64,000 nucleotides of DNA from Candidatus Xenobia bacterium (GCA_035573715.1 DATLZZ010000010.1:246746-310745); one strand, 5' to 3'; counted from the first letter of the stretch, positions 2,996 to 40,369 are shown. Notes: a model not told the origin generated them from the letters alone. Numbers and translations are program-made.

Positions 2996-3228
2996 GTGAT
3001 CCAAACTCGTAGCCCCAGGCTCCTGCCTGAGGGAAAACCGCTCCGGATTCAATTCCCGGAGGCGAAGCCCCCGGGCTACGGGGCGGGGTTCGCTGTTCGG
3101 TTTGATTCTAAGCCTTGTCTCGACTTCTTGCCAGCAGCACGGCCGCGCCGTATACTCGCGCATCCGGTGCGCGAGGGGAGCCAGCAGCGCGCCGCCGGAG
3201 TGCGGGTAAACCGAGGAGACAACGCCCG

Positions 3229-4494
3229 ATGGCCATCATCACCCCCGACAAAGAAATGGCTGTCTACGAAAACATGGGGGCGCGCTTTGACGTCGCCGCC
3301 GCCAGGCTGGGCCTCGATGAAGGCTTCCAGCACGTCCTGCGCAGCCCCAACAAAGAGATTACGCTTTACCTGCCGGTGGGGATGGATAACGGCAAGCTGG
3401 AGGTCTTTGTCGGCTACCGCGTGCAACACTCGATTGTGCGCGGGCCGGCCAAGGGCGGCATTCGCTACTCGCTCGACGTCACGCTCGACGAAGTCCGCGC
3501 CCTGGCCTCCTGGATGACCTGGAAGTGCGCGGTGGTCAACATTCCCTTCGGCGGCGCCAAAGGCGGCATCGTCTGCGACCCCAGCTCGCTGAGCCGGCGC
3601 GAGCTTGAGGCCATCACCCGGCGCTACACCGCCGAGCTGATGGACTTCCTCGGCCCCGAGCGCGACGTCCCCGCCCCCGACCTCGGCACCAACGAGCAGG
3701 TCATGGCCTGGGTGATGGACACCTATTCGATGCACATGCGCCACACCACCACGGCGGTGGTCACCGGCAAGCCGCTCGACCTCGGCGGCTCCCGCGGGCG
3801 CCGCGAGGCTACCGGGCGCGGCTGCCTCATCGTCACCGAGCGCCTGCTCAACAAGCTCAACCGGCGGCGCGAAGGCCAGCGCGTCGTCGTCCAGGGCTTT
3901 GGGAACGTCGGCTCGGTCTCCGCCAAGCTGATGGCCGAGGCGGGCTACAAGATTGTTGGCGTGGCCGACGTGCACGGGGCCATCTACAACCCCAAGGGCA
4001 TTGACGTGCCGAAGCTGATTGAGTACGCGCTGGAGACCGGCACGGTGAAGGACTTCCCCGGCTGCGACAAGGTCAACCGGAACGAAGTGCTCTTCCTCGA
4101 TTGCGACATCCTGGTGCCGGCGGCGGTCGAGAACGTCATCACCAGCCACAACGCCGACCGCATCAAGGCCTCCATCATCATCGAGGCCGCCAACGGGCCC
4201 ACCACCGCGCTGGCGGATGAGATTCTGGAAGACAAGAAGATTCACGTGGTGCCCGACATCCTGGCCAACGCCGGCGGCGTCACGGTCAGCTACTTCGAGT
4301 GGGTGCAGGACCGCGAAGGCTACTTCTGGCCGGAGTCGCTGGTCAACGACCGCCTCGAGCACATGATGATCGAGAGCTTCGAGGACGTATACGCCTACGC
4401 GCAACGCCACAACGTGAGCTTGCGCATCGCCGCCTATATGCTGGCGATTGACCGCGTCGCCTTCGCCCTCAAGCTCCGCGGCCTCTACGCCTGA
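3229..4494 (+). CDS. gdhA: Glutamate dehydrogenase
   Basis: ATG at 3229 is preceded by GAGGAG (3214-3219). Motifs [19 protein letters not shown] and a GFGNVG Rossmann loop. About 421 aa. Confidence 0.93.
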
Positions 4495-4498
4495 GATT

Positions 4499-4570
4499 GG
4501 CCACCAAGTCACAAAGACACAAAGCAGTGATGGTCGCGTTCTTCCTTTGTGCCTCCGTGTCTTTGTGGCC
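4499..4570. repeat. Imperfect inverted repeat built from tandem CACAAAG-type units
   Basis: Left arm is GGCCACCAAGTCACAAAGACACAAAG. Right arm is CTTTGTGCCTCCGTGTCTTTGTGGCC, with complementary termini GGCCAC/GTGGCC. It starts 5 nt after the gdh stop. Its architecture matches the 7360-7459 element. Confidence 0.6.
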
Positions 4571-5387
4571 CGCCCCCTTGTCGGCGCAGAAGCCGGTGGA
4601 CCGCGTGGAACTCGAGTATCGCCCACCGACGCTGCTGGTGGAAGCCAAGGTGAACGGCAAGGGGCCGTTCTGGTTCGCCTTCGATACCGGCGCCAGCACC
4701 AGCCTGATTGACGCTCGCGTGTCACAACGGCTGAAGCTGAAGCCCGAGCAGCGGCCCGATCGCGAAGGGCCGTACTTCACCCGCGCGCGCACGCTGGCGG
4801 TGGGGAGAGCTAAGGCGCGCGACTTGGAACTGGTCATCCGCGACTTCGCGCCGCTCTCGGAGCGCATCGGGCGCGAGGTGGCCGGCATCGTCGGCTACAA
4901 CTGGATGGAGCAGTTTGTGTTTGAGATTGATTACCGCAGCCTTCGGCTGACCATTTGGCCAAGCACCACAGAACTCATCCCGCGCGCGGACCAGTTTCCT
5001 GTGCCGCTCGAGCTGCGCTCGGTGCGCGGCCTCACCGGCGCCATCATTTATGTCCCGGCGCAGATGGAAGGCAAGCACCGCTGTCCGGCGGAAATTGACA
5101 CCGGAACCGACCTGGGAATACTCGGGCGGCAGATGGCGCTGGAGCTCGGCGTGGACGTCAACCGGCTCGGCGGGCAGCGGGAGCGCCCGCGGCATGAGGT
5201 GCGGCGGCTCGATGTCGCCGGGCGCACTTATGCGAATGTGCCCTTCTACGTCGACCCGCGCCGGGGCGCCGACGCCAATCCCTACGCCCAGTGCATCCTC
5301 GGCAACGAGGTGCTGAAAGAGTTTGTGCTGACAATTGACATCCCGCGCCGCCGCGCCTTCTTTCGCTGGCGACTGCCGCCGCCTTAG
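4530..5387 (+). CDS. Retropepsin-like aspartyl protease with two DTG lobes; start uncertain
   Basis: Two catalytic-type motifs, FAFDTGAS and AEIDTGTD. With ATG 4530 the N-terminus MVAFFLCASVSLWPAPLSAQ resembles a signal peptide, but it is encoded by the right arm of the 4499-4570 inverted repeat. The track uses TTG 4497. Confidence 0.7.
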   Translation: MVAFFLCASVSLWPAPLSAQKPVDRVELEYRPPTLLVEAKVNGKGPFWFAFDTGASTSLIDARVSQRLKLKPEQRPDREGPYFTRARTLAVGRAKARDLELVIRDFAPLSERIGREVAGIVGYNWMEQFVFEIDYRSLRLTIWPSTTELIPRADQFPVPLELRSVRGLTGAIIYVPAQMEGKHRCPAEIDTGTDLGILGRQMALELGVDVNRLGGQRERPRHEVRRLDVAGRTYANVPFYVDPRRGADANPYAQCILGNEVLKEFVLTIDIPRRRAFFRWRLPPP

Positions 5388-5440
5388 GCGACTCTTGCGA
5401 GGCGTGCGCGGTTTCGCTATGCTGCGCCTTCCGAAAGCCC

Positions 5441-6337
5441 ATGCCTGAGACTCTCAGTCCCGGAAAGCTGAAAACCGAGGACGAGCACCGCCGCGACATC
5501 TGCCTGGTCGGCCGCTGGATTCACGCCCGCGAGTACGTGGCCGCCACCGACGGCAACCTTTCGGTGCGGCTGGACAACCAGCGGGTCCTGGCCACGCCGA
5601 CGCTGATGTCGAAAGGCATGATGGAGCCCGACGACCTGGTGGTGGTCGATTACCAGGGCAACAAGCTCAGCGGGCGGCGCAACGCCTCCAGCGAAATCGC
5701 CATGCATCTGCTGATTTATCGTCGCCGCCCCGACGTGAACGCCGTCGTGCATGCTCACCCGCCCACCGCCACCGGCTACGCCGCCGCCGGGCTGGCGCTC
5801 AACCAGGCGCTCATCAGCGAAGTGGTGCTGGCGCTGGGCTGCATCCCGCTGGCGCAGTACGGCACGCCCGGCACGCCGGAGCTGTCCGATGCGTTGAGCC
5901 CGCTGGTCGGCAGCTACGACGCCCTGCTGATGGCCAACCACGGCGTCGTCACCTACGGCACCGACCTGCTCACCGCCTACATGCGGATGGAGACGGTGGA
6001 GCACTTCGCGCGCATTTCGCTGGTGACGCATCTGCTTGGCCGGCAGGTGCTGCTTTCCCGCGAGGAGGTGGAGAAGCTCGGCGAAGCGCGGCAGAAGTAT
6101 TTCGGCAGCCTGGGAGCGCCGGTGGCGCCGCTGACGGAGTCCTGCCCGGTGGCGGCGAATCCTTCGCCGCCGCCGGCCGTGGCTTCCCCTCCGGCGACGG
6201 AGCGGAAGCCGGCCCACCCGTCCGCGGGCGGACGGATTGGATCGGTGCCTCGCGGCCCGCGGGACCGTCTCTGGGTGACGCAGGACGAGCTTGAAGCTCT
6301 CATTGACGAAGCCGTGAAATCTGGTAGAGTTCGCTAG
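5441..6337 (+). CDS. Class II aldolase/adducin-family protein (fuculose/rhamnulose-1-phosphate aldolase-like) with C-terminal extension
   Basis: Catalytic and metal motifs SSEIAMH, VVHAHPP and MANHGVV. The aldolase domain ends near residue 220. It is followed by a Pro/Ala-rich linker and the terminal helix [19 protein letters not shown]. Confidence 0.85.
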
Positions 6338-6357
6338 ACCCGACAGGAGGAACCGGT

Positions 6358-6654
6358 ATGGGTGAAGCGCTGGGCATGATTGAGACTCGGGGGTTCGTGG
6401 CCATGATCGAGGCCTCCGACGCCATGGTGAAGGCGGCCAAGGTCACGCTGGTGGGCTGGGAGAAAATCGGTTCGGGCTACGTCACCGCGCTGGTGCGCGG
6501 CGACGTAGCGGCGGTGAAGGCCGCCACCGACGCCGGCGCTGCCGCGGCTCGCCGCGTCGGCGAACTGATTGCGGTGCACGTCATCCCGCGGCCGCACCCG
6601 TCGCTGGAAGACGTGCTGCCCATCGGCAAGGCCGCCGAGCTGGTCGCCCGCTAG
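6358..6654 (+). CDS. BMC-H shell protein (PduA/EutM/CcmK-type, single Pfam00936-like domain)
   Basis: [60 protein letters not shown]...[16 protein letters not shown] is a textbook BMC hexamer sequence. GGAGGA RBS upstream. Confidence 0.93.
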
Positions 6655-6753
6655 GCGCGCTGCTCCCTCCGCCCAGCGGCCACGGCCGCTGGGCCGCGCG
6701 GCCTTGTCGGGAGGGCACGACTCTTGTTGTGCCGTTCCGCGGGTTCTTTCTGT

Positions 6754-6767
6754 GGGGCTTTAGCCCC
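6754..6767. repeat. GGGGCTTTAGCCCC hairpin motif (member of the dispersed repeat family)
   Basis: 5-bp stem with TTTA loop, followed by TGAGGGTTTTT. The same string GGGGCTTTAGCCCCTGA recurs at 13112-13128. A variant GCGGCTTTAGCCGCTGA lies at 10221-10237. Confidence 0.6.
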
Positions 6768-6785
6768 TGAGGGTTTTTCAAGCCT

Positions 6786-7088
6786 ATGCTCCTCGCTCGA
6801 GTCGTCGGAACCGTCGTCGCCACCCGCAAAGACCCTCGCCTGGAAGGGAAGAAGCTGCTCATCGTGCGCACTATGACGCCGGACGGGAAAGAAGACGGCA
6901 ACTATCTGGTCGCGGTGGACACGGTCCACGCCGGCGCGGGCGAAAAGGTTCTCATCGTCCAGGGCGGCTCGGCCCGCATGGCCGACGGCTGCAAGGACCG
7001 CCCAGTGGACACCGCCATCATCGGCATCGTCGACACCGTCCGCCTCGACGAGCAGCCCGCCGCCGTCGCGGCCTCCGCCCCCAAGTAA
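6786..7088 (+). CDS. BMC-P pentamer/vertex protein (EutN/CcmL/PduN family), paralog 1
   Basis: MLLARVVGTVVATRKDPRLEGKKLLIV...AVDTVHAGAGEKVLIVQGGSAR...DTAIIGIVDTV shows the typical EutN/CcmL pattern. Confidence 0.9.
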   Translation: MLLARVVGTVVATRKDPRLEGKKLLIVRTMTPDGKEDGNYLVAVDTVHAGAGEKVLIVQGGSARMADGCKDRPVDTAIIGIVDTVRLDEQPAAVAASAPK

Positions 7089-7361
7089 ATGCTGCTCGGC
7101 AAAGTCATCGGCAACGTGGTTTGCACGGTGAAGAACCCTGTGCTGGAAGGAATCAAGCTGCTGGTGGTGCAGCCGCTCGACCGCGCCGGCAAGCCGAAAG
7201 GCAAGCCGATGATCGGGCTCGATGCCGTGGGCGCGGGCGCCGGCGAGACGGTTTACTGGTGCCGCGGGCGCGAGGCCAGCTTCGTCTGGTATCCCACCGA
7301 GGTGCCAACGGAGTGCACCATCGTCGCCATAGTCGACCGCGTAGAAACAGAGAAAGGGTAA
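7089..7361 (+). CDS. BMC-P pentamer/vertex protein, paralog 2
   Basis: MLLGKVIGNVVCTVKNPVLEGIKLLVVQPLD...GLDAVGAGAGETVYW...TIVAIVDRV. Its ATG immediately follows the TAA of paralog 1. Confidence 0.9.
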   Translation: MLLGKVIGNVVCTVKNPVLEGIKLLVVQPLDRAGKPKGKPMIGLDAVGAGAGETVYWCRGREASFVWYPTEVPTECTIVAIVDRVETEKG

Positions 7362-7459
7362 CCACAGATTCACACAGATGAACACAGATAAGGAACGCCG
7401 ACAAAAGCAGGGACTGTTTGTGTTTTTCCTCTGTGTGTATCTGTGTGCATCTGTGGTTT
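7360..7459. repeat. Inverted repeat whose arms each hold three 10-nt-periodic CACAGAT units
   Basis: Left arm AACCACAGATTCACACAGATGAACACAGAT (7360-7389). Right arm CTCTGTGTGTATCTGTGTGCATCTGTGGTT (7430-7459), a near-perfect reverse complement. The loop is about 40 nt. It sits between BMC-P2 and BMC-P3. Confidence 0.8.
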
Positions 7460-7469
7460 CGAATTCTCC

Positions 7470-7739
7470 ATGCTGATTGGCAGAGTCATCGGCGAGGTGT
7501 GGGCGACGCAGAAGACGCCCTCGCACGAGGCGCGCAAGTGCCTCTACGTGCAGCCGCTGGCGCTCGACGGCGCCGACCGCGGCGACCCGATCCTGGCGCT
7601 CGACGCGGTGGATGCCGGCGTGGGCGACCGCGTGCTGGTGGTCACTGAAGGCTACTCGGCCATGACGGCGGTGGGCCGCCCCAATTCGCCCATCGATATG
7701 GCCGTCGTCGGCGTCGTCGACGCGGTCGAGCTCGACTAG
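7470..7739 (+). CDS. BMC-P pentamer/vertex protein, paralog 3
   Basis: I start at ATG 7470, giving MLIGRVIGEVWATQKTPSHEARKCLYVQPL...ALDAVDAGVGDRVLVVTEGYSA...DMAVVGVVDAV. The track start at 7443 lies inside the repeat arm. Confidence 0.88.
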   Translation: MLIGRVIGEVWATQKTPSHEARKCLYVQPLALDGADRGDPILALDAVDAGVGDRVLVVTEGYSAMTAVGRPNSPIDMAVVGVVDAVELD

Positions 7740-7781
7740 CTGCTTGCCAGACTCGCGGGCCTCGCGCATAATCGCACGCGC

Positions 7782-8381
7782 ATGATTGGGTACCTGCGCG
7801 GAACCATCCTTTCCAAAAAGCCCTACGAAATTCTTCTCGATGTGAACGGCGTGGGTTACGAGCTGCGCGTGCCCTATTCGACCTCGCAACTCCCCGCCAG
7901 TGGCAGGGAGCTGAGCCTGGTGGTGCATACCCACGTGCGCGAGGATGCGATTACGCTCTACGGCTTCAAGACCGCCGCCGAGCGCGAAATGTTCCACCAG
8001 CTGCTGACGGTAAAAAACGTGGGGCCGAAGATGGCGCTGATGGTGCTGGCGGCGGTCGCACCGGCCGACATCACCAACGCCATCCGGCGCAACAACCCGC
8101 TGGCGCTGGTGGTGCCGGGCATCGGGCCGAAAACGGCCGAGCGCATCGTGCAGGAACTGCGCACCAGCTTGGTTTCGGTCGAGGCCGAGGCCACGCCGGC
8201 GCCGGGGCCGCCGCTCAGCGATGCGGCCGAAGAGGCTGTCTCGGCGCTGGAGAACATGGGATGTGACCCCAAGCTCGCCCAGAAGGCCGTGCGGGAGGTG
8301 CTACAATCGTCGAAGAGCGAAGCTGGATTCGAAGTGCTGATGAAAGGGGCGCTGCAGTGGCTACGAGAGAAAAGGCGATAG
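7782..8381 (+). CDS. ruvA: Holliday junction branch migration complex subunit RuvA
   Basis: MIGYLRGTILSKKPYEILLDVNGVGYELRVP...LYGF...ERE.F..L..V.GVGPK...PGIGPKTAERIV. Confidence 0.93.
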   Translation: MIGYLRGTILSKKPYEILLDVNGVGYELRVPYSTSQLPASGRELSLVVHTHVREDAITLYGFKTAAEREMFHQLLTVKNVGPKMALMVLAAVAPADITNAIRRNNPLALVVPGIGPKTAERIVQELRTSLVSVEAEATPAPGPPLSDAAEEAVSALENMGCDPKLAQKAVREVLQSSKSEAGFEVLMKGALQWLREKRR

Positions 8382-8411: not shown

Positions 8412-9482
8412 ATGGGGAAGAGAAAGGAAGCCATCGAGGTCCGGCCGGCGGCGCCGCATCCGAGCGGAATTCTCTCGGGCGCGGCGCTGGACGACGACCG
8501 GCAATTCGAAGCCTCGGTCCGCCCGCAGCTTCTCAAGGACTTCATCGGCCAGGCGAAATTGAAGGAGAATCTCTCCATCGCTGTCGAAGCCGCGCGCTCG
8601 CGGGGTGATGCGCTCGACCACGTCCTGCTCAGCGGTCCGCCCGGCCTCGGCAAGACCACGCTCGCCTACGTGCTCGCCAACGAGCTGGGCGTGCGCATCG
8701 AAACCACCTCGGGGCCGGTGCTGGAGCGCCCGCTCGACCTCTCGACCATTCTCTCCGTGCTGGAGCGCCGCCAGGTGCTGTTCATTGACGAACTCCACCG
8801 TCTGTTGCCGGCCGTCGAAGAGATCCTTTATCCGGCGCTCGAAGATTTCAAAATCGACATGATTGTCGGCAAGGGTCCGGGCGCGCGCACGCAGGTCTAT
8901 CGCCTGGAGCGGTTCACGCTGGTGGGGGCGACGACCCGCACCGGGCTGGTCACCAAGCCGCTGCTCTCGCGCTTCGGGATCGTGCATCGGCTGGACTTTT
9001 ATCCCGTGGCCGACCTCCAAACCATTGTTACGCGCGCCGCGGGCATCCTGGGCATCGCGATTGACTCCGGCGGCGCGGAAGAGATTGCCCGGCGCTCGCG
9101 CGGCACCCCGCGCGTTGCCAACCGGCTGTTGCGGCGGGTGCGCGACTTCGCCCAGGTGCGCGCCGGCGGCAGCATCAACCGCACCGTGGCCAGGGACGCG
9201 CTGGCGATGCTGGATGTGGACGAGTACGGGCTCGACGAGCTTGACCGAAAGATTCTCTTGACGGTAATCGAAAAATACGGCGGCGGGCCGGTCGGTCTCA
9301 ACACCATCGCCGCCTCCATCAGCGAAGAGGCCGACGCGCTGGAAGAAGTCTACGAGCCCTACCTGATGCAGATTGGGTTCCTGAACCGCACCCCGCGCGG
9401 GCGGGTTGCGACCGAGCTGGCCTACAAACACTTCGGGAAGCTGCCTCCTACCCCCAGCGCTCCCCCCCTCTTCAGCTCCTAA
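8412..9482 (+). CDS. ruvB: Holliday junction DNA helicase RuvB
   Basis: Walker [23 protein letters not shown], and conserved TTRTGL.T.PL.SRFG. Confidence 0.95.
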
Positions 9483-9972: not shown

Positions 9973-10011
9973 ACGGCGAGGGCGCCGGAGGGCCCCTCGC
10001 CGTTTTTTTTG
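9973..10011 (+). terminator. Rho-independent terminator after the Spy-like gene
   Basis: 10-bp stem ACGGCGAGGG (9973-9982) pairs with CCCTCGCCGT (9994-10003). The loop is 11 nt. A run of eight T follows. Confidence 0.8.
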
Positions 10012-10124
10012 TAAACCTCGCATTGCCTCCGAGCAGTGGACGAAGCTCGCCGCCTGGCGAGCGGAGAGGCCCAAGCAGCAAGCACAGGACAAACCCCAGC
10101 AATAATCCTCGCTTGAAGTCCATT

Positions 10125-10164
10125 TGCGGCGAGGAATCCCGCTCCATCGGGATTCCTCGCCGCA
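10125..10164. repeat. Perfect long hairpin (15-16 bp stem)
   Basis: GCGGCGAGGAATCCC (10126-10140), loop GCTCCATC, then GGGATTCCTCGCCGC (10149-10163). There are no mismatches and a T/A pair flanks the stem. Confidence 0.85.
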
Positions 10165-10173
10165 TTTGTCTTT

Positions 10174-10244
10174 GGAAGGGCGGGGTTTGAACCCCGCCGT
10201 TGCAAGGCGCAAGCCGCAAGGCGGCTTTAGCCGCTGAAGCCATC
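10174..10244. repeat. Dispersed two-hairpin repeat unit, copy 1
   Basis: GGAAGGGCGGGGTTTGAACCCCGCCGT...GCGGCTTTAGCCGCTGAAGCCATC aligns with the copies at 12980-13062 and 13066-13135. Confidence 0.75.
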
Positions 10245-10361
10245 CCTCGACCCGCAGGTTGCCCGCAGGCAACGTGCGCGCCCTCTCCCATGCGTTCCGA
10301 TGCGTTCCGGACGCATGAACCATGGGGGGCAGGGCATAGGCCTGCCGGGCCGGGAAGCCGC

Positions 10362-10367
10362 TACAAT
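10362..10367 (+). promoter_or_regulatory. Candidate -10 box (TACAAT), 7 nt upstream of the folK GTG
   Basis: GCTACAATAGGCGCTGTG. No Shine-Dalgarno in between, so a leaderless transcript is possible. Confidence 0.3.
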
Positions 10368-10374
10368 AGGCGCT

Positions 10375-10875
10375 GTGGCGCCTTGTTTCAAAACTGCGTT
10401 TCTCTCTCTAGGCTCGAACCTGGGAGACCGTGTGGCGCACATCGAGCGGGCGCTGGCCGCGCTCTCGCAGACTGATGTACTGGTTCTTCGCCGCTCCTCG
10501 CTCTATGAAACTGAGCCGGTTGGCACCAACGCGCAGCGCTGGTTTGTGAATTGCGTCGTGGAGGTGGAAACCGAACTCATGCCGCTGGCGCTGCTGCGTC
10601 TGCTCAAGCGCATCGAGCGCGAAATGGGAAGGAATCCGGGCGCCGGCGCGCAGCCGGTTGCGCGATCGATTGACCTGGACATTCTTGCCTACGGGCAATT
10701 GGTGGCGAACTCACCGGAACTGACCATCCCGCACCCGCGACTGGCCGAGCGCCGCTTTGTGCTCGAGCCGCTGCGCGAGCTGGCGCCCGATTGGCGCCAT
10801 CCCGTCACTCGCCTGAGCGTGGCCGAGATGTTGGTTGCCCTGCGCGATTCCGCCACCGTGCGCCGACTACGCTAG
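10375..10875 (+). CDS. folK: 2-amino-4-hydroxy-6-hydroxymethyldihydropteridine diphosphokinase (HPPK)
   Basis: AFLSLGSNLGDR...SSLYETEPVG...RSIDLDILAYG...LTIPHPRLAERRFVLEPL. I start at the in-frame GTG 10375. The track start at 10300 would put 25 codons inside repeat sequence. Confidence 0.85.
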   Translation: MAPCFKTAFLSLGSNLGDRVAHIERALAALSQTDVLVLRRSSLYETEPVGTNAQRWFVNCVVEVETELMPLALLRLLKRIEREMGRNPGAGAQPVARSIDLDILAYGQLVANSPELTIPHPRLAERRFVLEPLRELAPDWRHPVTRLSVAEMLVALRDSATVRRLR

Positions 10876-12032
10876 TGCCGGCGGCGCTGCATCGGCCGCG
10901 GCTCTTCTGCCGGCGGCGCCCACTTGCCCGAGCGCGCACCTTCCTTGCGCAGCTTGTTGAAGTGCAGCAGCGGCTCGCTGCGCTCGGTCAGCGAGGCGAG
11001 TTGAAAAATGCTGTAGCGCGGCGACTCAATCTGCACCAGGCGATACTCGCCCGGCTCGACTTCGATAATCTGTTTGCCCTGCTGCTCGCTGAGGAAGCGC
11101 TCGGCGTCGGCCACCGAGGCGCGCGCGTCCTCATAGGCCGGCACGCTCATCGCCTCCACCACGTAACTCCGCAGCAGCTTCGGCCAGTAGCGCTGGAACA
11201 AGCTCGAATCGGCGAACAGGTCGGCCCACACCACTTCGCCGTTGATGGCCACGACGACGCCGACCACGTTCTTGCCTTGCAGCGCGCCGCGCAGGGCTCG
11301 CTCGTACTCGCGCTGCAGGTTGGCGCTGGCGTCGTCAATGTGACGCTTGATGGTCGGCGAGGCTTCCATTTGCGCGTAGCTGCTCGACCCTTGCAGCTCG
11401 CGCTCTACCCGGCCGGGCTCCGCGCTCGGAACCGCGGCCGCGGCCACGCCCGAGCGCGACTCGGCCGTGGCGTCCCACACCTGCTGCTGGTTGCGCGCCA
11501 CGGCCGCTTTCTCGCGCACCTTGGGCGCCGCCATCAGGCTGGCGCCGAAACTTGCCGAGGCGCCGTGCCAGCGCCCGGGCTCGACGCAGAACACATCCAG
11601 CGGCAGCGGGTCGCCGCCCGGCGGGATGACGCGGTCCCTGGAAATCACCCGGTCCTGCTTGCCGCCGGTGACGATTTCCCCGGCCAGCAATATCAGCGGG
11701 CGGCTGGAGTGATTGATGAGCACCAGGCGGTTCACCTGCGCCTGGCCGAGCGGCAGCGAGCCGTGCCGCCGTCGCTGCAGCGCCGCGCCGAGCTCGGTCA
11801 CCTCGACTTCGCCCGAGCGCAACCCTTCGTCCAGCGTCAGGTAGTTGCGCGCATCGTGTTGGGCAGAGCTCGATACTGGAAACAACGCCAGGTTGGAGTA
11901 GAGAATCGGCGGGTGAACTTGCCAGTCGCGAACCTTCGGGATGCCCGCCGCAGCGGGTGGGCTGTCGTAGGTCAGAACCACCGTTGCCGCCGCGACAACG
12001 AAAACCAAAACCGGAAACCATCGTTTCAACAT
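10872..12032 (-). CDS. DUF6569 (ARPP-1-like) domain protein with N-terminal membrane anchor
   Basis: Start at ATG (complement 12030-12032), giving MLKRWFPVLVFVVAAATVVL. The core reads NLALFPV...YLTLDEGLRSGEVEVTEL...VNRLVLINHSSRPLILLAGEIVTGGKQDRV...PLDVFCVEPGRW. This matches my memory of the DUF6569 signature (YLTLDEA...V.E....G.V..L...N....PVLLL.GE...G.KQNR...PV.CVE.GRW). It needs an HMM check. Confidence 0.6.
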   Translation of the reverse strand: MLKRWFPVLVFVVAAATVVLTYDSPPAAAGIPKVRDWQVHPPILYSNLALFPVSSSAQHDARNYLTLDEGLRSGEVEVTELGAALQRRRHGSLPLGQAQVNRLVLINHSSRPLILLAGEIVTGGKQDRVISRDRVIPPGGDPLPLDVFCVEPGRWHGASASFGASLMAAPKVREKAAVARNQQQVWDATAESRSGVAAAAVPSAEPGRVERELQGSSSYAQMEASPTIKRHIDDASANLQREYERALRGALQGKNVVGVVVAINGEVVWADLFADSSLFQRYWPKLLRSYVVEAMSVPAYEDARASVADAERFLSEQQGKQIIEVEPGEYRLVQIESPRYSIFQLASLTERSEPLLHFNKLRKEGARSGKWAPPAEEPRPMQRRRH

Positions 12033-12220
12033 GAATTCGTCCTCCCTCTTTCGCCCCCGGCGTATCGGCCGAGGCGGGCCCCAGTCGGCGCGCTTCGTTG
12101 TGATGCCCGTCCCAGGAGGTGAGCGCGCCCGGGGCCCGCGACCGGCCCCTTGCACCTCTGCTATCGCCGCCGGCCGAGGAAAGTTCCCGGCTGTGCTCTT
12201 TTCATCTCTGCTGACTTGGG

Positions 12221-12226
12221 TATAAT
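12221..12226 (+). promoter_or_regulatory. Candidate -10 box (perfect TATAAT) for the deoxynucleoside kinase gene
   Basis: CTTGGGTATAATCCC lies 39 nt upstream of ATG 12265. GGGAGG RBS at 12256-12261. Confidence 0.4.
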
Positions 12227-12264
12227 CCCGGCGCTGGTGTCGGGTTCAGGAAGTCGGGAGGTCC

Positions 12265-12921
12265 ATGGGAACCGGGCCCAAGTTTGCGCCGCCCCGCTAC
12301 ATTGCTGTCGAAGGCCCCATCCGGGTCGGGAAGTCCACCCTGGCGCGCATCGTTTCGGAAAAGCTTCACGCGCGGCTCATCGCCGACCGCACCGACAATC
12401 CCCATCTCGCGGCGTTTTATCGCAGCGAGCCCGGCGCCGCCTTTCGCGCTCAGATGCACTTTCTGCTGGCGCGCTACCTCCAGTTGCGCGACCTGGCGCT
12501 CGAGCACGACCCCCGCACCATCGTCTGCGATTACCTCTTCGAGAAAGACCGCGTCTTCGCCACCCTCAACCTCAACGACGCCGAGCTTCAGGTCTACCAG
12601 CAGTACTTCGACCTCTTCCGCCCGCAGGTCGCGACGCCCGACCTGGTTATCTATCTGCAAGCCACGCCGGCGGTGCTGCGCAAGCGCCTGAAGCGCAGCC
12701 CGGCCGCCGCCTCCGAGCGCGACATCTCCGACGACTACCTCGAAGCCGTCGCCGAAGCCTACGACCATTTTTTCTTCCACTACTCGGCGTCGAACCTTCT
12801 CGTCATCAACACCAGCGAGATTGATTTCGTCGAGCGCTCCGAAGATTTGCAGGCGCTTCTTCGCCGCCTCGGCGAGCCCGTCAAAGGCACTCAGTACTTC
12901 CTCCCCCTCGGCCCGTCGTAA
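12265..12921 (+). CDS. Deoxynucleoside kinase family protein
   Basis: P-loop IAVEGPIRVGKSTLA. dNK-type pattern (DNP.L..FY, FEKDR.FA, LVIYL.A.P..L..R...R). 218 aa. Confidence 0.8.
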   Translation: MGTGPKFAPPRYIAVEGPIRVGKSTLARIVSEKLHARLIADRTDNPHLAAFYRSEPGAAFRAQMHFLLARYLQLRDLALEHDPRTIVCDYLFEKDRVFATLNLNDAELQVYQQYFDLFRPQVATPDLVIYLQATPAVLRKRLKRSPAAASERDISDDYLEAVAEAYDHFFFHYSASNLLVINTSEIDFVERSEDLQALLRRLGEPVKGTQYFLPLGPS

Positions 12922-14691: not shown

Positions 14692-15207
14692 ATGGTTCCG
14701 TTACCGGTCTTGCAGACGCTCTACGACTACAACTACTGGGCGCGCGACCAGCAGCTCCGCGCCTGCGCCGCCCTGAGCGAAGAGAAGTTCCTCCGCCCGC
14801 TCGGCAGCAGCTTTTCGTCCGTCCGCGACACCCTCGCCCACCTGGTCGCTGTGGAATGGGTCTGGCTGGAGCGGTGCAAAGGACACTCGCCCACGCGAGC
14901 CGAAGCCGCGCCCTGGGCGGCTGAAACATTTCCCACCCTTGCGGTTGTCGAGCAGCGTTGGCGCGACACTGAGCGCGGCTGGCGCGACTACCTCCGCACC
15001 CTTACGCCGGAACAGCTTCTCCAACCCCTCAGCTACACCAATATCGCCGGCAAGCAGTGGACCTATCCCCTCTGGCAGATCCTCATTCACCTCGTCAACC
15101 ACCAGACCTATCACCGCGGCCAGATTACGACCCTGCTTCGCCAGCTCGGGGTGCCCGCCACGGAAGTCGACTTACTCGTCGCCTTCGACTCCGGTCAGGT
15201 GAAGTGA
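14692..15207 (+). CDS. DinB/YfiT-like metalloenzyme family protein, paralog 2
   Basis: ATG 14692 is preceded by AGGAGG (14681-14686). MVPLPVLQTLYDYNYWARDQQLRAC...SVRDTLAHLVAVEW...NHQTYHRGQITT. By eye it is clearly a paralog of the preceding gene. Confidence 0.85.
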   Translation: MVPLPVLQTLYDYNYWARDQQLRACAALSEEKFLRPLGSSFSSVRDTLAHLVAVEWVWLERCKGHSPTRAEAAPWAAETFPTLAVVEQRWRDTERGWRDYLRTLTPEQLLQPLSYTNIAGKQWTYPLWQILIHLVNHQTYHRGQITTLLRQLGVPATEVDLLVAFDSGQVK

Positions 15208-16076
15208 AAACTCTCACCACCATCGCGGAAATGCAGACGGCGGTCGCCGGGCTGCGCGGCCTCGGCCAGCGCATCGGCTTCGTGCCGACGATGGGCGCGC
15301 TGCACGAGGGTCATCTCTCGCTCGTGCGCCGCTCCAAGCAGGAAACCGACGTGACGGTCGTCTCCATCTTCGTCAACCCGGCCCAGTTCGGCCCCCACGA
15401 GGACTACCTGCGCTACCCGCGCGACCTGGAGCGCGACTCCGCGCTTCTTCTCCGCGAAGGCGCCGACCTGCTCTTTGCGCCCTCGGTCGAAGAGATGTAC
15501 CCGAACGATTTTCAGAGCTACGTGAGCGTGGAGCGCGTCGCCACGCCGTTCGAAGGCCAGTTCCGCCCGGGACACTTCCGCGGCGTCGCCACGGTGGTGC
15601 TGAAGCTCTTCAACATCGTGCAGCCCCACCGCGCCTACTTCGGCCAGAAGGATGCCCAGCAGTGCGCCGTGGTGCGCCAACTGGTGCGGGACTTGAGCCT
15701 GCCGGTTGAAATCATTGTGTGTCCCATCGTCCGCGAGCCCGACGGCCTGGCGATGAGCTCCCGCAACGCCTACCTCAAGCCCGACGAGCGCCAGGCGGCC
15801 CTGGTGCTTTCGCGCAGCCTGGCGCGCGCCCGCGAATTGATCGAAGCCGGCGAGCGCCGCGCCGAAGTCCTGGCTCAGCAGGTACGCAACGTTATCGAGC
15901 AGGAACCCAAGGCGCGCATTGACTACGTGGGGGTCGCCGACGCCGACACCTTCGAAGCGCGCGACACCCTCGCCGGCCGCACCGTCATCGCCCTGGCGGT
16001 CTGGATCGGCGGCGCCCGCCTGCTCGACAACCTCATCGTCGAAGAGACCCCCGCCGGCCTGCAATTTCGCGCATAA
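15204..16076 (+). CDS. panC: Pantoate--beta-alanine ligase
   Basis: The GTG at 15204 overlaps the dinB2 stop (GTGA). VKTLTTIAEMQTAV...GFVPTMGALHEGHLSLV...VSIFVNP.QFGP.EDY..YPR... Confidence 0.93.
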   Translation: MKTLTTIAEMQTAVAGLRGLGQRIGFVPTMGALHEGHLSLVRRSKQETDVTVVSIFVNPAQFGPHEDYLRYPRDLERDSALLLREGADLLFAPSVEEMYPNDFQSYVSVERVATPFEGQFRPGHFRGVATVVLKLFNIVQPHRAYFGQKDAQQCAVVRQLVRDLSLPVEIIVCPIVREPDGLAMSSRNAYLKPDERQAALVLSRSLARARELIEAGERRAEVLAQQVRNVIEQEPKARIDYVGVADADTFEARDTLAGRTVIALAVWIGGARLLDNLIVEETPAGLQFRA

Positions 16077-16131
16077 TTCTCGCTGCGCTCAGGCAGCCGG
16101 AACCGCCCGGCTCGCTATCAAAGTAAGAGAC

Positions 16132-19100
16132 ATGGCGATGCGCCGGCGAAGACGAGTGGCAGTAGTTGTCTTCGTCCTGGGTGTGTTGCTGACCACCGTT
16201 TTCCTGTGGGTCTTTGTTTCTTCCACCGGGCAGGAAGCTGTCCGCCGGGCTCTCGAGCAGCAGACCGGCCTGACGGCGCGCGCGCAAAGTGTTGAGAGGC
16301 TGTGGCTGCCTCCCGGCGTCCTGATTCATGAAGTAGAGCTGGAAAGCGCCGGCCTCAGCCTCAAGGCGCGCGCGATGGAGGTTCGTGTAGCCTGGCTGCC
16401 GTTGCTGTGGGGCGAAGTCCGCGCCGGCGACATTCGCCTCACCGATGCCCGCCTCCACCTGAGTCCTCAGAGGGACGCCGCGGCCGCAGCCTCCGGCTTG
16501 CCGCGGGGCGCCGACTGGGAACTGAACAACCTTGACCTTTGGACGACCGTTGACGGCACTGAGAGGCAACTGTTGCACATTGACAGGGCCTCCTGGTCGC
16601 CCAGCCTGACGGAGAAGAGCCGTCTGGAGCTCTCCGGCTCCGCCGGTGACTCCGAGAGCTCGCGCATTCATATTCTGGGCGAAGCCACCGCCTGGCGCCC
16701 GCCGGCGCTCCCGGACGGCCGGCTCCAGCTCGAGCTCACGGAGTTTCCCGCACAGCCGTTGCTCGGACAAGTTGTCGGCGACTCCCGCCTGCTGGGTGCG
16801 GCGCGCTTGAACGGCAAGCTCACGGTGAACAGCAACACCGGCGCGGCCGAAAGCCAGGGCGCTTTGCAGGCAACGACGCCGGAAGGCGCGCAGCTCATCG
16901 CGCTCGACTTCAGGGCGCGCGCCACGCCGGCCCTGCTCACGCTCGACTCCGCTGCGGGCGAGCTGGCGGGAAACCGCTTCGAAGCCGCGGGCACCGCCGA
17001 CGGCTGGCAGGGAAGCGACCGCAAGACGGAACTTACGCTTCGCCTGCCCGATGCCCGCTTGGAGAAGGAGACGCGGTCGCAGATTCGCGCTGTGCTGGGT
17101 CGGGAGACGCTCGGCTTTGCTGAGAATGTCCGCGGGCGCTTCGCCGCCGAGCTGAAGCTGACGGAATCTGCCGGCCGCGCCCGCGTCGGCGGCCGCGCCG
17201 ACCTCAACGGCCTCACCTACGCCCGCAAGGGGATGCCGGCGCTGGAAGATATTCGCGGCCGGCTGGCGCTTGCGGGCGACGCAGTAGTGTTTGAGCAGGT
17301 CACGGCCAAGGCGTTCGACACGCTGACGCGCATCACCGGCCAGGCCCGCGGCGACCAGTTGGCGCTGCGCCTGGAGACTGACGACGTTCCCGCCGAGCGC
17401 ATCCTCGCCGAGCTGGCGCCCGACCTTCACTTGGCCGGCGTGCACGGCGTTGCGCGCTTGGAAGTCGACGTTGTTGGCCCGGCTGACCAGCCCACCCTCG
17501 CCGGCCGCGCTCACATCCGCGGTGTGGGCTTCGATCTGCGCCAGTTGCCGGTTCGCGGCGTCGAGGGCGAAGCTGCTTTTAACTCCGACCGGGTTCACTT
17601 CGAGTCGCTGCGCGGCCGCGCCGGCGGCTGCGAGGCGCGCGCCAGCGGCGAGACGCTGTTGGCGGCTTGGAGCAGCGGAACCATCGGCCAGGTCACGCTG
17701 CCGGAATGCGAGATCGCGCAAGTAGCCCATGTTGCCGAACTGGCGGGCATCGGCCGTTTCCCCGGCCTTGAGCCGGAGACGCTCGAAGGCCGCGGCACTG
17801 TGGCTCTCAGCTACGCGCACGAGCGTTGGCGCGCGGAACTGATGGTTCCTGGCGCGCGCTGGAGTCCTGCCTGGTTGGCCGCGCCGCTGGAAGATGTACG
17901 CGCCTCGGTGCGCATTGACCCCGAGGCCGTCCAGATTCGCAACCTCAGCGGGCGCTTCGGCTCCTCGCCCGTTCGCCTGCATGGCGAGGTCGGGCTGCGC
18001 GGAGCCGAGTCGGCCCCCTGGCAGATGGACCTTGAAGCTCATCTGACGCCGCAGGATGCCGAATCCCTCGTCCCCTCGCCTTGGCGCCGGTGGGTGCGCC
18101 TTGTGAATGAAGTGGAAGCGCGCGGCCGCCTGCGCGGCCAGCCCGAGGCCGTCACGCTCGAGGCCCAGATTCAAACCAACCCAACGCTGACCGCGTCGGC
18201 TGTTCCCGTTCCCGTGCCGGAGGCCGTGCCGGCCACCATTGACATTCGCGCTCGCTGGGACGATGTGGGCTTTGCGCTCGAGCGGTTCTCCGCTCGCTTT
18301 GGCAACACTGAGTTCAGCGGGCGTGGCTCACTCGAGCACAGTTCCGAACCTCAACTCGACTTCCACTTGCAGGCGCCGCCGGGCAGCTCGCTGGAAGAGC
18401 TGCTGGCGCTGGTCCGCTTGCCCGCGCCGTTGCAGTCGGCGCGCGGCAAGGCCGCAGTGGATCTCACCTTGCGAGGCTCGCTCGCCAACCCCCAATGGGC
18501 CGGCATGGTCGAACTGGCGGAAGTCTATCTGCCGAATGTGCTCGCTGAGCCGGTGCAGATGAAGGGTCGCCTGCTCCTCTCGGCCGACGGCCTTAGCCTC
18601 GACCGTGTGCGGATCACACAACCTTCCGGCGAGCTGGCAGTCAACGGGCGGCTGCGCTCCGAAGGGGTGTCCACGATCGAGATCGCCGGCGCCGCGGCCA
18701 ACCTCGACGACTTCTTCAGCCAGTGGCAGGGCGGTTCATTCAACTGGTCGGAGCAAACTTTTCTGCGCGAGCATCCCTTCCAGGTTTCGCTGGCGCTGGA
18801 GCGCGCGCAGTTTCTGGACCTCACCTTCACCCACGTGCGCGGGCGGCTCGAGCAGTCGGAGGGGAAGCTCAGCCTGAGCATCCCCCATTTCGGGCTGGGC
18901 TCGGGTCACGGCCGGCTGGAGGGAAGCGTCGAGCCGGCGGACGACCAGTTGCGCGCCAGCCTGGAACTGAACCAGGTTCCCGTCGAAATGCTGCTGGGCG
19001 ATTTCCTCAAAGCCCAGCGCATCGTCACCGGCCCACTCGACCTCCACGTGGAGCTGACCGGCCCCGTGGGCTCGCGGCAGGACTACTTGCGCACCGCCAG

Positions 19101-29528: not shown

Positions 29529-30920
29529 TCAGAGACCTGAGTAGGTATTCCGCTTGAGGAAGCGCCCGGCACCCGGTTTGCCGACGAACTTTCCGTTGTC
29601 AATCACGACGCGGCCGCCCACCAGCACTTGCCGCGGCATCCCTTTCACTTTGATGCCCTCGAACATCGAGTAGTCCACCCGCATGTGGTGCGTCTTGGCG
29701 CTGATGACTTCTTCCTTGTCGGGATCCCACAGCACCAGGTCGGCGTCGGAGCCGACCGCGATGGTGCCTTTGCGGGGGTAGAGCCCGAAGAGTTTCGCCG
29801 GCGCGGTGGAAACCAGCTGCACGAAGCGGTTGATGTTGAACCGCCCGCCGCCCACCCCGCCGGTGTAGACCAGGCTCAAACGGTGCTCGATTCCCGGTCC
29901 GCCGTTGGGAATCTTGGTGAAGTCGTCCCTGCCCATCTCCTTCTGTTCCTTGAAGCAGAACGGGCAGTGGTCGGTGGAGACGACTTGCAGGTCATCTTTC
30001 GCCAGGCCCGCCCAAAGCTTGTCCTGGTGCCACTTTTCGCGCAGCGGTGGCGTGAAGACGTACTTGGCTCCTTCGAAGCCCGGCACGTCGAAGTTGTCGA
30101 TCGAAAGGAAGAGGTACTGCGGGCAGGTTTCGGCGTAGGCGGGCAGGCCGCGGTCGCGCGCCTCGCGCACCTTCTCCAACGCGTCGTTGCAGGAGAGGTG
30201 AACGATGTAGACGGGCGCCCCGGCCATCTCGGCCAGCGCAATGGCCCGCGCAGTGGCTTCAGCCTCGGCGGTCGTCGGGCGCGTCAGCGCATGATACTTG
30301 GGCGCTGTCTTGCCCTCCGCCAGCGCCCGCTTGACGATGACGTCAATCGCTCCGCCGTTTTCGGCGTGCATGCAAATCAGGGCCCCGCTCTTCGCTGCCT
30401 GGCTCATCGCCTTGAAGATGAGCGCGTCCTCCACCATGAAGACGCCCGGGTAGGCCATGAACAGCTTGAAGCTCGACACGCCCTCTTGCACCAGCGCGTC
30501 CATCTCTTCCAGCCGCGCGTCCGGCAGGTCGGTCACGATGCAATGGAAGGCGTAGTCGGTCACCGCCTTGTTGTGCGCCTTCTTCATCCAGGTGTCGAAC
30601 GCCTCGCGCAGCGTCTGGCCCTTGTACTGGATGGCGAAGTCAATCAGCGTCGTCGTGCCGCCGTGGGCGGCGGCGATGGTGCCGCTCTCAAAATCATCGG
30701 CGCTGGTAGTGCCGCCGAAGGGCATGTCAAGGTGGGTGTGAACGTCGATGCCACCGGGCATGACGTAAAGCCCGCGGGCGTCGAGCACCTGCTTGGCCGA
30801 CTCGCGCGGCAAGCTGGCGGCAATGGCGGCGATGCGGCCGTCGCTCAGACCGATGTCGGATGCGTAGGTGTCGGACGCGGTGACGACGGTGCCGCCCTGA
30901 ATCAGCGTGTCAAATTGCAT
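29529..30920 (-). CDS. Dihydropyrimidinase / D-hydantoinase
   Basis: MQFDTLIQGGTVVTA...GGIDVHTHLDMPFGGT...DDFESGT.AAA.GGTT..IDF...FK.FMAY; 463 aa. Confidence 0.92.
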   Translation of the reverse strand: MQFDTLIQGGTVVTASDTYASDIGLSDGRIAAIAASLPRESAKQVLDARGLYVMPGGIDVHTHLDMPFGGTTSADDFESGTIAAAHGGTTTLIDFAIQYKGQTLREAFDTWMKKAHNKAVTDYAFHCIVTDLPDARLEEMDALVQEGVSSFKLFMAYPGVFMVEDALIFKAMSQAAKSGALICMHAENGGAIDVIVKRALAEGKTAPKYHALTRPTTAEAEATARAIALAEMAGAPVYIVHLSCNDALEKVREARDRGLPAYAETCPQYLFLSIDNFDVPGFEGAKYVFTPPLREKWHQDKLWAGLAKDDLQVVSTDHCPFCFKEQKEMGRDDFTKIPNGGPGIEHRLSLVYTGGVGGGRFNINRFVQLVSTAPAKLFGLYPRKGTIAVGSDADLVLWDPDKEEVISAKTHHMRVDYSMFEGIKVKGMPRQVLVGGRVVIDNGKFVGKPGAGRFLKRNTYSGL

Positions 30921-30972
30921 GTTCGTCTCCCCTGCGGTGCGAGCGTATGGTAGTGGCGCGCCCGCAGAGGTG

Positions 30973-30990
30973 TCAACGCAGATGCGTTGA
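30973..30990. promoter_or_regulatory. Palindrome TCAACGC-AGAT-GCGTTGA in the divergent dihydropyrimidinase/preT promoter region (candidate operator)
   Basis: Perfect 7-bp arms with a 4-nt spacer. It overlaps a TTGATG -35-like hexamer (30987-30992) and lies upstream of a TAGAAT -10-like hexamer (31012-31017). Confidence 0.35.
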
Positions 30991-31034
30991 TGCGCGCGCG
31001 AGGCGCTGTGCTAGAATCCGCTCCACGAGCGGCC

Positions 31035-32375: not shown

Positions 32376-32383
32376 GAGGCGTC

Positions 32384-33670: not shown

Positions 33671-33691
33671 GCTCGAACGCTCCCAAAACTT

Positions 33692-35557: not shown

Positions 35558-35560
35558 GCG

Positions 35561-36667: not shown

Positions 36668-36676
36668 AAGACCTTC

Positions 36677-38824: not shown

Positions 38825-38845
38825 CGGGTTGGTGTCGGCAATCCG

Positions 38846-40348: not shown

Positions 40349-40369
40349 GATTGCTATCGAGCCTCCTTC

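Follow-up and report, generated by a model that had tools for sequence, protein, structure and literature searches.

A five-gene aldolase and shell locus probably represents the core of the ACI-type bacterial microcompartment

A 64,000-nt stretch of a metagenome-assembled genome (MAG) labelled Candidatus Xenobia bacterium (GCA_035573715.1, DATLZZ010000010.1:246746-310745; hereafter the window, which means this whole stretch) carries a compact locus for a bacterial microcompartment (BMC): a class II aldolase, one hexameric shell protein (BMC-H) and three pentameric shell proteins (BMC-P; here P1, P2 and P3). To which kind of organelle does such a locus belong, and how could it work with so few genes? 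A first-pass annotation of the sequence had assigned it to the fucose/rhamnose metabolosomes of Planctomycetes and Verrucomicrobia (PVM or PVM-like), had treated the missing acylating aldehyde dehydrogenase (AldDH) as an anomaly, and had offered two ways out, namely a split locus with the core enzymes encoded elsewhere, or a shell that encapsulates only an aldolase. It had also voiced the hunch that the locus might belong to a catalogued type restricted to Acidobacteria. Our comparisons bear out that hunch and lead away from PVM: in both orthology and gene order the locus matches reference loci of the ACI type, and it very probably represents the core of that type. The two-way alternative was the right framing, and below we weigh its two sides.

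The gene content proposed for the locus was confirmed by searches with Pfam PF00596, PF00936 and PF03319. All five products, encoded co-directionally on the + strand, pass the Pfam gathering scores. The aldolase is 100% identical to NCBI HXE75380.1. The window belongs to a 338,477-bp NCBI third-party annotation (TPA) MAG contig (window proteins HXE75380.1-HXE75430.1), with full identity seen for HXE75380.1-HXE75386.1 and others, and the PGAP annotation there already names the locus genes. The flanks likewise read as claimed, with gdh and a protease gene upstream and ruvAB downstream. When the five proteins were compared by phmmer with all six-frame open reading frames (ORFs) of the 64 kb, no further BMC, EutN or aldolase gene was found, and the window holds no tandem BMC domain or trimeric shell protein (BMC-T). 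Among the ~60 window proteins, Pfam found no PduL phosphotransacylase (PF06130), iron-containing alcohol dehydrogenase (Fe-ADH, PF00465), acetate kinase (PF00871) or 2-hydroxyacid dehydrogenase (2-Hacid_dh). The sole PF00171 (AldDH-family) protein in the window (38849-40348, minus strand, 500 aa) consists of a domain at aa 21-486 with no terminal extension and is encoded among pyrimidine genes, just as the first reading had it. Its statement that a metabolosome core is missing therefore stands for the 64 kb, in which phmmer and Pfam searches returned no acylating AldDH, PduL, Fe-ADH or BMC-T.

ACI is a BMC type of the catalogue of Sutter et al. 2021 (Nat Commun 12:3809), with 125 loci, found in Acidobacteria only and of unknown function (PMC8217296). 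Its main locus comprises a PF00596 aldolase with a C-terminal encapsulation peptide (EP), BMC-H and an adjacent BMC-P triplet (PMC8217296, Supplementary Data 2), and in the catalogue also holds a hydroxyacid dehydrogenase (PF00389/PF02826) and small unknown proteins (PMC8217296). The ACI AldDH is consistently on a satellite locus, in 'most' ACI genomes, and carries an EP near its C-terminus followed by a ~50-aa domain (PMC8217296). By this description, a main locus lacking AldDH is no anomaly. We recovered two ACI reference loci, L100 and L101 (L numbers are our handles for related loci), by a HMMER search for divergent EP-bearing aldolases, followed by a profile search and a look-up of gene context. 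Both have the order unk97-ALD-H-P-P-P-unk69-2-Hacid_dh (ALD, aldolase; H, BMC-H; P, BMC-P), matching the catalogued ACI composition. The window genes occupy equivalent positions throughout, with identities to L101 of 89% for BMC-H, 65% for P1, 55% for P2, 46% for P3 and 52% for the aldolase. The best match of P2 in L101 is the second BMC-P; the match of P3 is weak, in that P1 and P3 reach nearly the same score with the third L101 BMC-P. The window thus resembles ACI in its EP-bearing PF00596 aldolase, its one BMC-H with standard motifs, its P1-P2-P3 order, a main locus without AldDH and an acidobacterial lineage. On these comparisons of sequence and gene order, we consider it highly probable that the locus is an ACI-type core locus made up of aldolase and shell cassette. 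As such it is a type known from the catalogue since 2021 and no new design; of the earlier description as a 'functionally undescribed design', the part on function holds, the function of ACI being indeed unknown. The genes are also abundant, with >7900 homologues of the aldolase and at least 8000 of BMC-H, the latter in clusters of up to 3323 members.

Could the locus instead be a PVM or PVM-like fucose/rhamnose locus whose core (AldDH, PduL, and a kinase or reductase) lies just beyond the window? PVM and PVM-like loci do share with this locus the Pfam family of the signature enzyme, its C-terminal EP and a BMC-P triplet (PMC8217296), the nearest solved enzymes are fuculose-phosphate aldolases, and PVM and the window probably share the logic of aldolytic aldehyde release within a shell. 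However, these features also occur outside PVM. Over all types, the triplet ranks second in frequency among BMC-P states, and both ACI and the Haliangium ochraceum (HO) type also pair a triplet with a PF00596 aldolase (PMC8217296); the catalogue calls the ACI aldolase 'most similar to that of HO/MIC3' and groups it apart from PVM (PMC8217296). PVM hosts are from different phyla, whereas gene order and orthology in the window agree with the ACI reference loci and its relatives are acidobacterial, both among the 79 loci of the scan described below and among the 120 protein matches listed, a few oddly labelled MAGs excepted. No AldDH lies within 10 kb on either side of those 79 loci, and no PduL was found in the window or in nine relative contigs. 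Erbilgin et al. are said to have described, in 2014, a PVM operon that unites AldDH, a PduL-type phosphotransacylase and further enzymes in a single locus. We therefore regard the PVM assignment as highly improbable.

The solved relatives of the shell proteins point to a second possibility. BMC-H finds its best PDB relatives in H. ochraceum HO-5815 (5djb) and EutM, and HO BMC-P 5v74 is the best PDB relative of all three pentamers (P1 81, P2 63 and P3 46 bits). HO also has a BMC-P triplet and a PF00596 aldolase linked to BMC-P, and in HO type I a satellite locus pairs an aldolase with two BMC-P genes (PMC8217296), so the locus could be imagined as an HO-type satellite in which an aldolase and BMC-P module serves a main locus with AldDH and BMC-T elsewhere. 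Yet in HO type I the BMC-H gene shares the main locus with AldDH, while in the window BMC-H and the full triplet are grouped with the aldolase; the HO main locus encodes BMC-T trimers and an AldDH whose EP is N-terminal, and the window has no tandem BMC domain and no EP-bearing AldDH. Most HO aldolases are without a C-terminal extension, and HO hosts are mostly Deltaproteobacteria, whereas the window lineage is acidobacterial. Given the direct collinearity with ACI, we find this reading scarcely credible.

Two differences from the catalogued ACI type concern gene content and host: the locus lacks the hydroxyacid dehydrogenase (PF00389/PF02826) and the small unknown proteins of the catalogued locus, and its host belongs to Terriglobia (Ca. 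Acidoferrales), whereas the catalogued hosts are mainly Acidobacteria of subdivisions 4 and 6 (PMC8217296). A phmmer seed and Pfam found no hydroxyacid dehydrogenase in the 64 kb, and neither the window nor any Terriglobia locus gave a tblastn match to unk97, unk69 or unk117 of L100/L101; with 131 and 108 bp, the intergenic gaps of the locus leave no room for such genes. The reference clade itself varies, however. The dehydrogenase is present in two of its five places (L100 and L101) and absent from L099, L102 and the JGI 3300047160 contig, where synteny is otherwise identical, which makes it an accessory rather than an invariant ACI gene. The invariant ACI unit is aldolase(EP)-H-P1-P2-P3, with the dehydrogenase and small Cys-rich proteins as accessories. 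One of the latter, of ~97 aa, has a hydrophobic N-terminal segment together with a C-G-x(n)-FFCSDAC motif (L101 9711-10004; L100 3-299), and another, of 69 aa, has terminal Cys residues in a CxxxxxxxCxxCxxC-like pattern (L101 12261-12470; L100 2355-2564). Both agree with the remark in the catalogue that metal binding is possibly important in ACI (PMC8217296). One candidate for the dehydrogenase among the related loci, a PilZ-fused 2-hydroxyacid dehydrogenase encoded upstream of the aldolase in L010, was rejected as an ACI gene: its identity to the ACI enzyme is 37%, its N-terminal domain is unrelated and a long antisense ORF lies in between.

The link between enzyme and shell is to be sought in the aldolase tail. 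The catalytic domain is that of a FucA-like enzyme, with best PDB relatives in FucA 6btd (95 bits), 4c24 and 6voq 'Aldolase' (87 bits) and a score of 61 bits against E. coli FucA. E85, H104, H106 and H167, at the metal and catalytic positions of the family, are invariant across 36 homologues and line up with the 6btd motifs SSE..MH, VH.H and ANHG. Beyond residue 221, a Cys-Pro-Val (C235-P236-V237) is at least 90% conserved in the 36 homologues and stands ahead of a linker of ~50 residues, with 12 Pro and 9 Ala, that varies freely in both length and sequence. The first-pass annotation had called a C-terminal targeting helix, and the call held up: the helix at residues 275-293 is amphipathic, with a hydrophobic moment of 0.53, among the highest in the aldolase, and it is conserved over the same 36 homologues in which the linker varies (E283, L284 and E285 invariant; I288, E290 and A291 at least 90%). 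An AlphaFold2 model, of low confidence (mean pLDDT 60) and used for the secondary structure of the tail alone, has an isolated helix at 281-293 after an unstructured stretch, and the linker shows no secondary structure at pLDDT <50. A flexible linker followed by a terminal amphipathic helix is standard EP anatomy (PMC8217296). The EP of the window is a lineage variant of the same helix: the reference ACI aldolase ends in IRLTYRELSALIEEAV, and the window helix differs from it. Across the window and 84 related loci, a hidden Markov model (HMM) of the helix matches aldolases only. Many class II aldolases that also bear an EP but are more distant (40-50% identity; P0252, P0267, P0297, P0299, P0309, P0371, P0372 and P0386) have a Cys-rich CxxC or CxxCxxC motif between catalytic domain and linker, where ACI and Terriglobia aldolases have the single Cys-Pro-Val; this motif may be a metal or redox site tied to encapsulation.

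How unusual is the short form of the locus? We scanned GTDB with one genome per species and kept 79 loci with a close relative of the aldolase, each with up to 10 kb on each side. Aldolase, BMC-H and three BMC-P genes occur together in 38 of them, three have partial shell sets and 38 have no shell gene. All 38 cassette-bearing loci, from Terriglobia species representatives, have the bare ALD-H-P-P-P form without the ACI accessory genes, and the cassette lies in at least five housekeeping neighbourhoods: gdh/ruvAB (as in the window), rhomboid/flagellar, queA/TonB-dependent receptor, DegT/MiaB-like and TPR/HhH-GPD. The stripped-down cassette is the ordinary state in Terriglobia. With the window PF00171 protein as phmmer seed, no PF00171 gene was found in the flanks of the 79 loci (±10 kb, ~1.3 Mb), and the same flanks have no 2-Hacid_dh gene save the unrelated PilZ-fused enzyme of L010. 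The Pfam-annotated gene tables of nine relative contigs contain neither AldDH nor PduL; for PduL, the search covered these contigs and the window, and not the flanks of the 79 scan loci. In the ~1.3 Mb of related flanks, the helix HMM picked up no further EP-like helix.

The loci without a shell shed a different light on these absences. Of the 38 loci that lack BMC-H and BMC-P genes within 10 kb, 29 encode the C-terminal helix, one of which (L067) is cut at a contig end and uninformative. The helix in these loci, xRITLTRRELEALV[DE]EAV, is strongly conserved across groups with unrelated linkers (L024, L033, L038, L039, L041-L046, L048-L051, L053-L055, L058, L059, L061, L064, L069-L071, L074, L076, L077 and L079; aldolase near 10001-10800 where full flanks were fetched). 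In most of these aldolases the Cys of the CPVT sequence is replaced (EFPVT, VSPVT, ESPVT). Their shell genes may lie elsewhere, or the helix may have a second, shell-independent role. The whole aldolase tail is lost in nine further shell-less loci, and two Terriglobales loci with a full shell cassette (L068 4033-4815; L084 993-1700) have an aldolase without the amphipathic helix that still ends in the lineage-typical ...KRRW. The converse arrangement also occurs: L093 has a shell-only H-P-P-P cassette (6001-7250) with no aldolase within 6 kb, and L094-L098 have the same arrangement. Beside the L093 cassette lie a peptidase M13 gene and, on the opposite strand, genes for a 200-aa hydrophobic protein and a GAF/sigma-54 activator, the last a candidate regulator. 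This family demonstrably allows cargo and shell genes to be separated, and since they occur unlinked in relatives, the absence of nearby partner genes carries little force. Intermediate forms exist as well. One Terriglobia contig (L034) has two tandem ALD-H-P-P-P cassettes (10001-12462 and 14881-17341), L035 has kept BMC-H (10900-11172) with no BMC-P, and L009 and L013 have BMC-H with just two BMC-P genes; together these give the impression of duplication and stepwise loss caught at different stages at one site.

We favour, as the reasonably probable mechanism, a split metabolosome with a main locus reduced to aldolase and shell and with its partners encoded elsewhere. BMC-H hexamers would tile the facets and the three BMC-P pentamer types would cap the 12 vertices, with BMC-H produced in large excess through its strong Shine-Dalgarno site, the hairpin that follows its gene and the weak or missing Shine-Dalgarno sites of the BMC-P genes. 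During assembly, the C-terminal helix would dock the aldolase on the luminal face of the shell. Inside, the enzyme would cleave a phosphorylated (deoxy)ketose of the fuculose- or rhamnulose-1-phosphate kind into dihydroxyacetone phosphate and an aldehyde, and the aldehyde would be consumed by partners encoded elsewhere, for which the leading candidate is the ACI satellite AldDH with its own EP.

The other side of the alternative is an organelle in which Terriglobia have reduced ACI to a shell around the aldolase, with no AldDH or other luminal partner anywhere in the genome. Several observations fit this idea. The sole unit inherited together over at least five neighbourhoods is ALD-H-P-P-P, no other EP-like helix appears in the 64 kb and ~1.3 Mb of related flanks, the window and the fetched Terriglobia flanks are devoid of homologues of the ACI accessory genes, and the catalogue reports the satellite AldDH for 'most' rather than all ACI genomes (PMC8217296). 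Set against these, an aldehyde released in a shell without a consumer has no obvious benefit, and the ACI AldDH is distal by rule, so that its absence nearby carries no weight. Linkage is also a poor guide to cargo content where aldolase and shell are unlinked in relatives, and cargo need not have an EP, as CutC336-1128 was packaged in recombinant GRM2 particles without an identifiable one (PMC6971018). We consider the aldolase-only organelle unlikely and prefer the split metabolosome.

Can one hexamer and three pentamers build a closed shell at all? The first reading had judged the 1 H : 3 P gene stoichiometry and the single hexamer type unusual for this. By sequence, BMC-H has the canonical GSG pore, K25 and PRPH edge motifs, scores 147 bits against a cut-off of 133 for NCBIfam EutM, and is 96-100% identical to its close relatives. 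Pentamers sit at 12 vertices only, as in minimal HO shells of 60:20:12 H:T:P tiles (bioRxiv 10.1101/2024.10.31.621445), and in GRM2 one BMC-H and one BMC-P form closed 25-nm pT=4 particles (PMC6971018, PDB 6QN1). This choline BMC of Klebsiella pneumoniae (Kalnins et al. 2020, PDB 6QN1) resembles the window in having a locus without BMC-T; it differs in its glycyl-radical choline lyase cargo, single BMC-P, several BMC-H paralogues and proteobacterial host. Expression signals favour the hexamer. Upstream of BMC-H, 41 of 47 loci have a Shine-Dalgarno match of 5 nt or longer, compared with 2/44 for P1, 2/45 for P2 and 6/45 for P3. The spacer between BMC-H and P1 folds with a minimum free energy (MFE) of -73.4 kcal/mol (z = -3.9; 0/200 shuffles fold as well) and has a terminator-like site at 6753-6769 followed by a T-run; its hairpin is a possible attenuator lowering BMC-P output. 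Because each shell needs just 12 pentamers, 1H+1P shells have been solved and the signals favour BMC-H, the stoichiometry is no obstacle, and the gene set of the window would in principle be sufficient for a closed shell.

The three pentamers are themselves of long standing. P1-P3 are 40-45% identical to one another (P2 is 40% identical to P1 and to P3), whereas orthologues in different loci are 64-75% identical (median), and the P1-P2-P3 order is retained in 41 of 45 shell-bearing loci. As orthologues exceed paralogues in identity and the order is kept, the triplet is ancient and each member is maintained. The spacers within it have a more restless history. The P2/P3 spacer contains a near-perfect hairpin (MFE -48.8 kcal/mol, z = -7.1) with four occurrences of a CACAGAT-repeat motif, where 0.07 are expected, and this element also occurs at other intergenic sites (L005 4927-5019 and 5312-5394; L052 6225-6322 and 12676-12755; L003 12062-12078; L031 14294-14310; L063 15137-15153). 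The 95-nt hairpin is probably a dispersed palindromic repeat of the REP (repetitive extragenic palindromic) or MITE (miniature inverted-repeat transposable element) kind, outside the organelle system. In relatives, genes for a HicB-like antitoxin, a 23S rRNA intervening-sequence protein and PIN proteins are inserted between the BMC-P genes without disrupting them (selfish or toxin-antitoxin-type insertions at L002 6801-7001, L003 12090-12566, L087 8292-8720 and L089 8080-8508), so the triplet spacers seem to be insertion hot spots.

Such insertions of selfish genes and a palindromic repeat, together with the stepwise loss seen in related lineages (L035, L009, L013, the 38 shell-less loci and the nine tail-less aldolases), raise the question of whether the shell genes are decaying relics of a lost organelle, with no compartment made. 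Sixteen consecutive window genes are collinear with the Acidoferrales-like contig L002 at 55-100% amino acid identity, 13 of them at 87% or more. The divergence of the BMC genes parallels that of the flanking gdh, ruvB, dNK and panB. Identities to L002 are 89% for gdh, 94% for ruvB, 87% for the aldolase and 90-93% for P1-P3; to L003, 80%, 80%, 73% and 65-79%; and to L023, 65%, 67%, 58% and 64-73%, in the same order. From this parallel we conclude that the cassette is long-standing, vertically inherited and under purifying selection; it is neither a recent transfer nor a wreck. Decay is further contradicted by the five intact ORFs of the window, by a BMC-H that is 100% identical to that of L002 and 89% to that of a distant ACI reference, by P1-P3 that are as close to L002 as ruvB and gdh are, and by the conservation of the paralogue order and of the Shine-Dalgarno pattern. 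A remnant is thus very unlikely, and an ACI-type core locus remains the preferred reading.

Several points weigh against this reading, or against parts of it. The NCBI label of the MAG, 'Candidatus Xenobia' (Vulcanimicrobiota), conflicts with the restriction of ACI to Acidobacteria. However, all 79 kept scan loci and all of the 120 protein matches listed are acidobacterial, bar a few oddly labelled MAGs, with taxon labels of Acidobacteriota, Terriglobia and Ca. Acidoferrales (also spelt Acidiferrales), and RuvB, S2, ribosome recycling factor, BMC-H and P2 cluster at 90% identity or more with proteins labelled Ca. Acidoferrales, Acidiferrales or Acidobacteriota. Because the housekeeping protein relatives and the collinear L002 are acidobacterial, we judge the Xenobia label of this contig to be probably a binning or labelling error. 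Other MAGs with a syntenic aldolase locus are oddly labelled too (Bacillota, Baltobacteraceae, Verrucomicrobiia and Rugosimonospora; three of the four are SMAG assemblies) and may share the problem. The satellite AldDH of this genome is taken from the catalogue, our view being 64 kb of a 338-kb contig, and the helix HMM found no second protein with a similar helix in those 64 kb. The Terriglobia lineage, without the ACI accessory genes, may run a different or shorter pathway. The aldolase reaches no NCBIfam equivalog cut-off, scoring about equally against OtnC (126 of 250 bits) and FucA (118 of 264 bits), and for this reason we leave its substrate unassigned. Finally, the evidence is computational throughout and the organelle is known here from its genes alone; we found no literature on ACI beyond the catalogue, including imaging or assays of ACI organelles.

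The features of the locus and its immediate flanks are given in Table 1.

Table 1. Coordinates of the aldolase and shell locus and of its neighbours, in window positions.
Feature	Position	Strand	Basis or remark
gdh	3115-4494		upstream flank; Pfam
Asp_protease_2, secreted Asp-protease-like	4497-5387		upstream flank; Pfam
Class II (FucA-like) metal-dependent aldolase-family enzyme, 298 aa	5441..6337	+	PF00596 Aldolase_II, E 7e-47, aa 19-193
Aldolase linker, Pro/Ala-rich, aa 222-274	6104..6262	+	variable between homologues; conserved Cys-Pro-Val (C235) ahead
Aldolase C-terminal amphipathic helix, presumed encapsulation peptide, aa 275-293	6263..6319	+	conservation, hydrophobic moment
Shine-Dalgarno site AGGAGG, 7 nt 5' of BMC-H start codon	6345..6350	+	sequence reading
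BMC-H hexamer shell protein, 98 aa	6358..6654	+	PF00936, E 3e-30
BMC-H/BMC-P1 spacer, structured, with terminator-like hairpin and T-run (6753-6779)	6655..6785	+	folding energy
BMC-P paralogue 1 (P1), 100 aa, most canonical pentamer	6786..7088	+	PF03319 EutN_CcmL, E 7e-31
BMC-P paralogue 2 (P2), 90 aa	7089..7361	+	PF03319 EutN_CcmL, E 3e-26
P2/P3 spacer hairpin, 95 nt, CACAGAT repeats	7362..7456	.	folding energy, motif count
BMC-P paralogue 3 (P3), 89 aa	7470..7739	+	PF03319 EutN_CcmL, E 1e-24
ruvA	7782-8381		downstream flank; Pfam
ruvB	8412-9482		downstream flank; Pfam

The start codon of P2 immediately abuts the stop codon of P1. For P3 we take the ATG at 7470 as the start rather than the GTG at 7443, in agreement with the recorded 89-aa product (HXE75384.1). 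A search of 5000-8200 against Rfam gave sub-threshold matches of miRNA models to the hairpins alone, which we take as chance, and promoter-like hexamers at 6303-6330 and 7744-7772 are bare consensus matches that we did not use as evidence. Outside the locus, the ~60 window proteins examined with Pfam are of the housekeeping kind only, among them ribosomal proteins, EF-Ts/UMP kinase-type/ribosome recycling factor genes, cytochrome c maturation, pentose-phosphate enzymes, GatB and glycosyltransferases. It includes a reductive pyrimidine-catabolism cluster at 29532-42561, unrelated to the microcompartment, which houses the single PF00171 gene. Its genes encode an amidohydrolase (dihydropyrimidinase-like), a two-subunit dihydropyrimidine dehydrogenase-like enzyme, an M28 peptidase, an FAD oxidoreductase, a HAD hydrolase, a cytosine/uracil permease, the aldehyde dehydrogenase, a class III aminotransferase and a beta-ureidopropionase-like CN hydrolase.

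Acidobacteria can form a large share of soil bacteria, and ACI is among the largest microcompartment types without a known function. The comparison made here adds no new type and sharpens the working definition of ACI, with the five-gene aldolase-H-P1-P2-P3 set as a minimal construct. In Terriglobia, this cassette stands alone in housekeeping neighbourhoods and can even be divided into its aldolase and shell parts. Were the less likely, aldolase-only organelle to prove true, it would be a metabolosome-derived organelle without the enzyme that defines metabolosomes.

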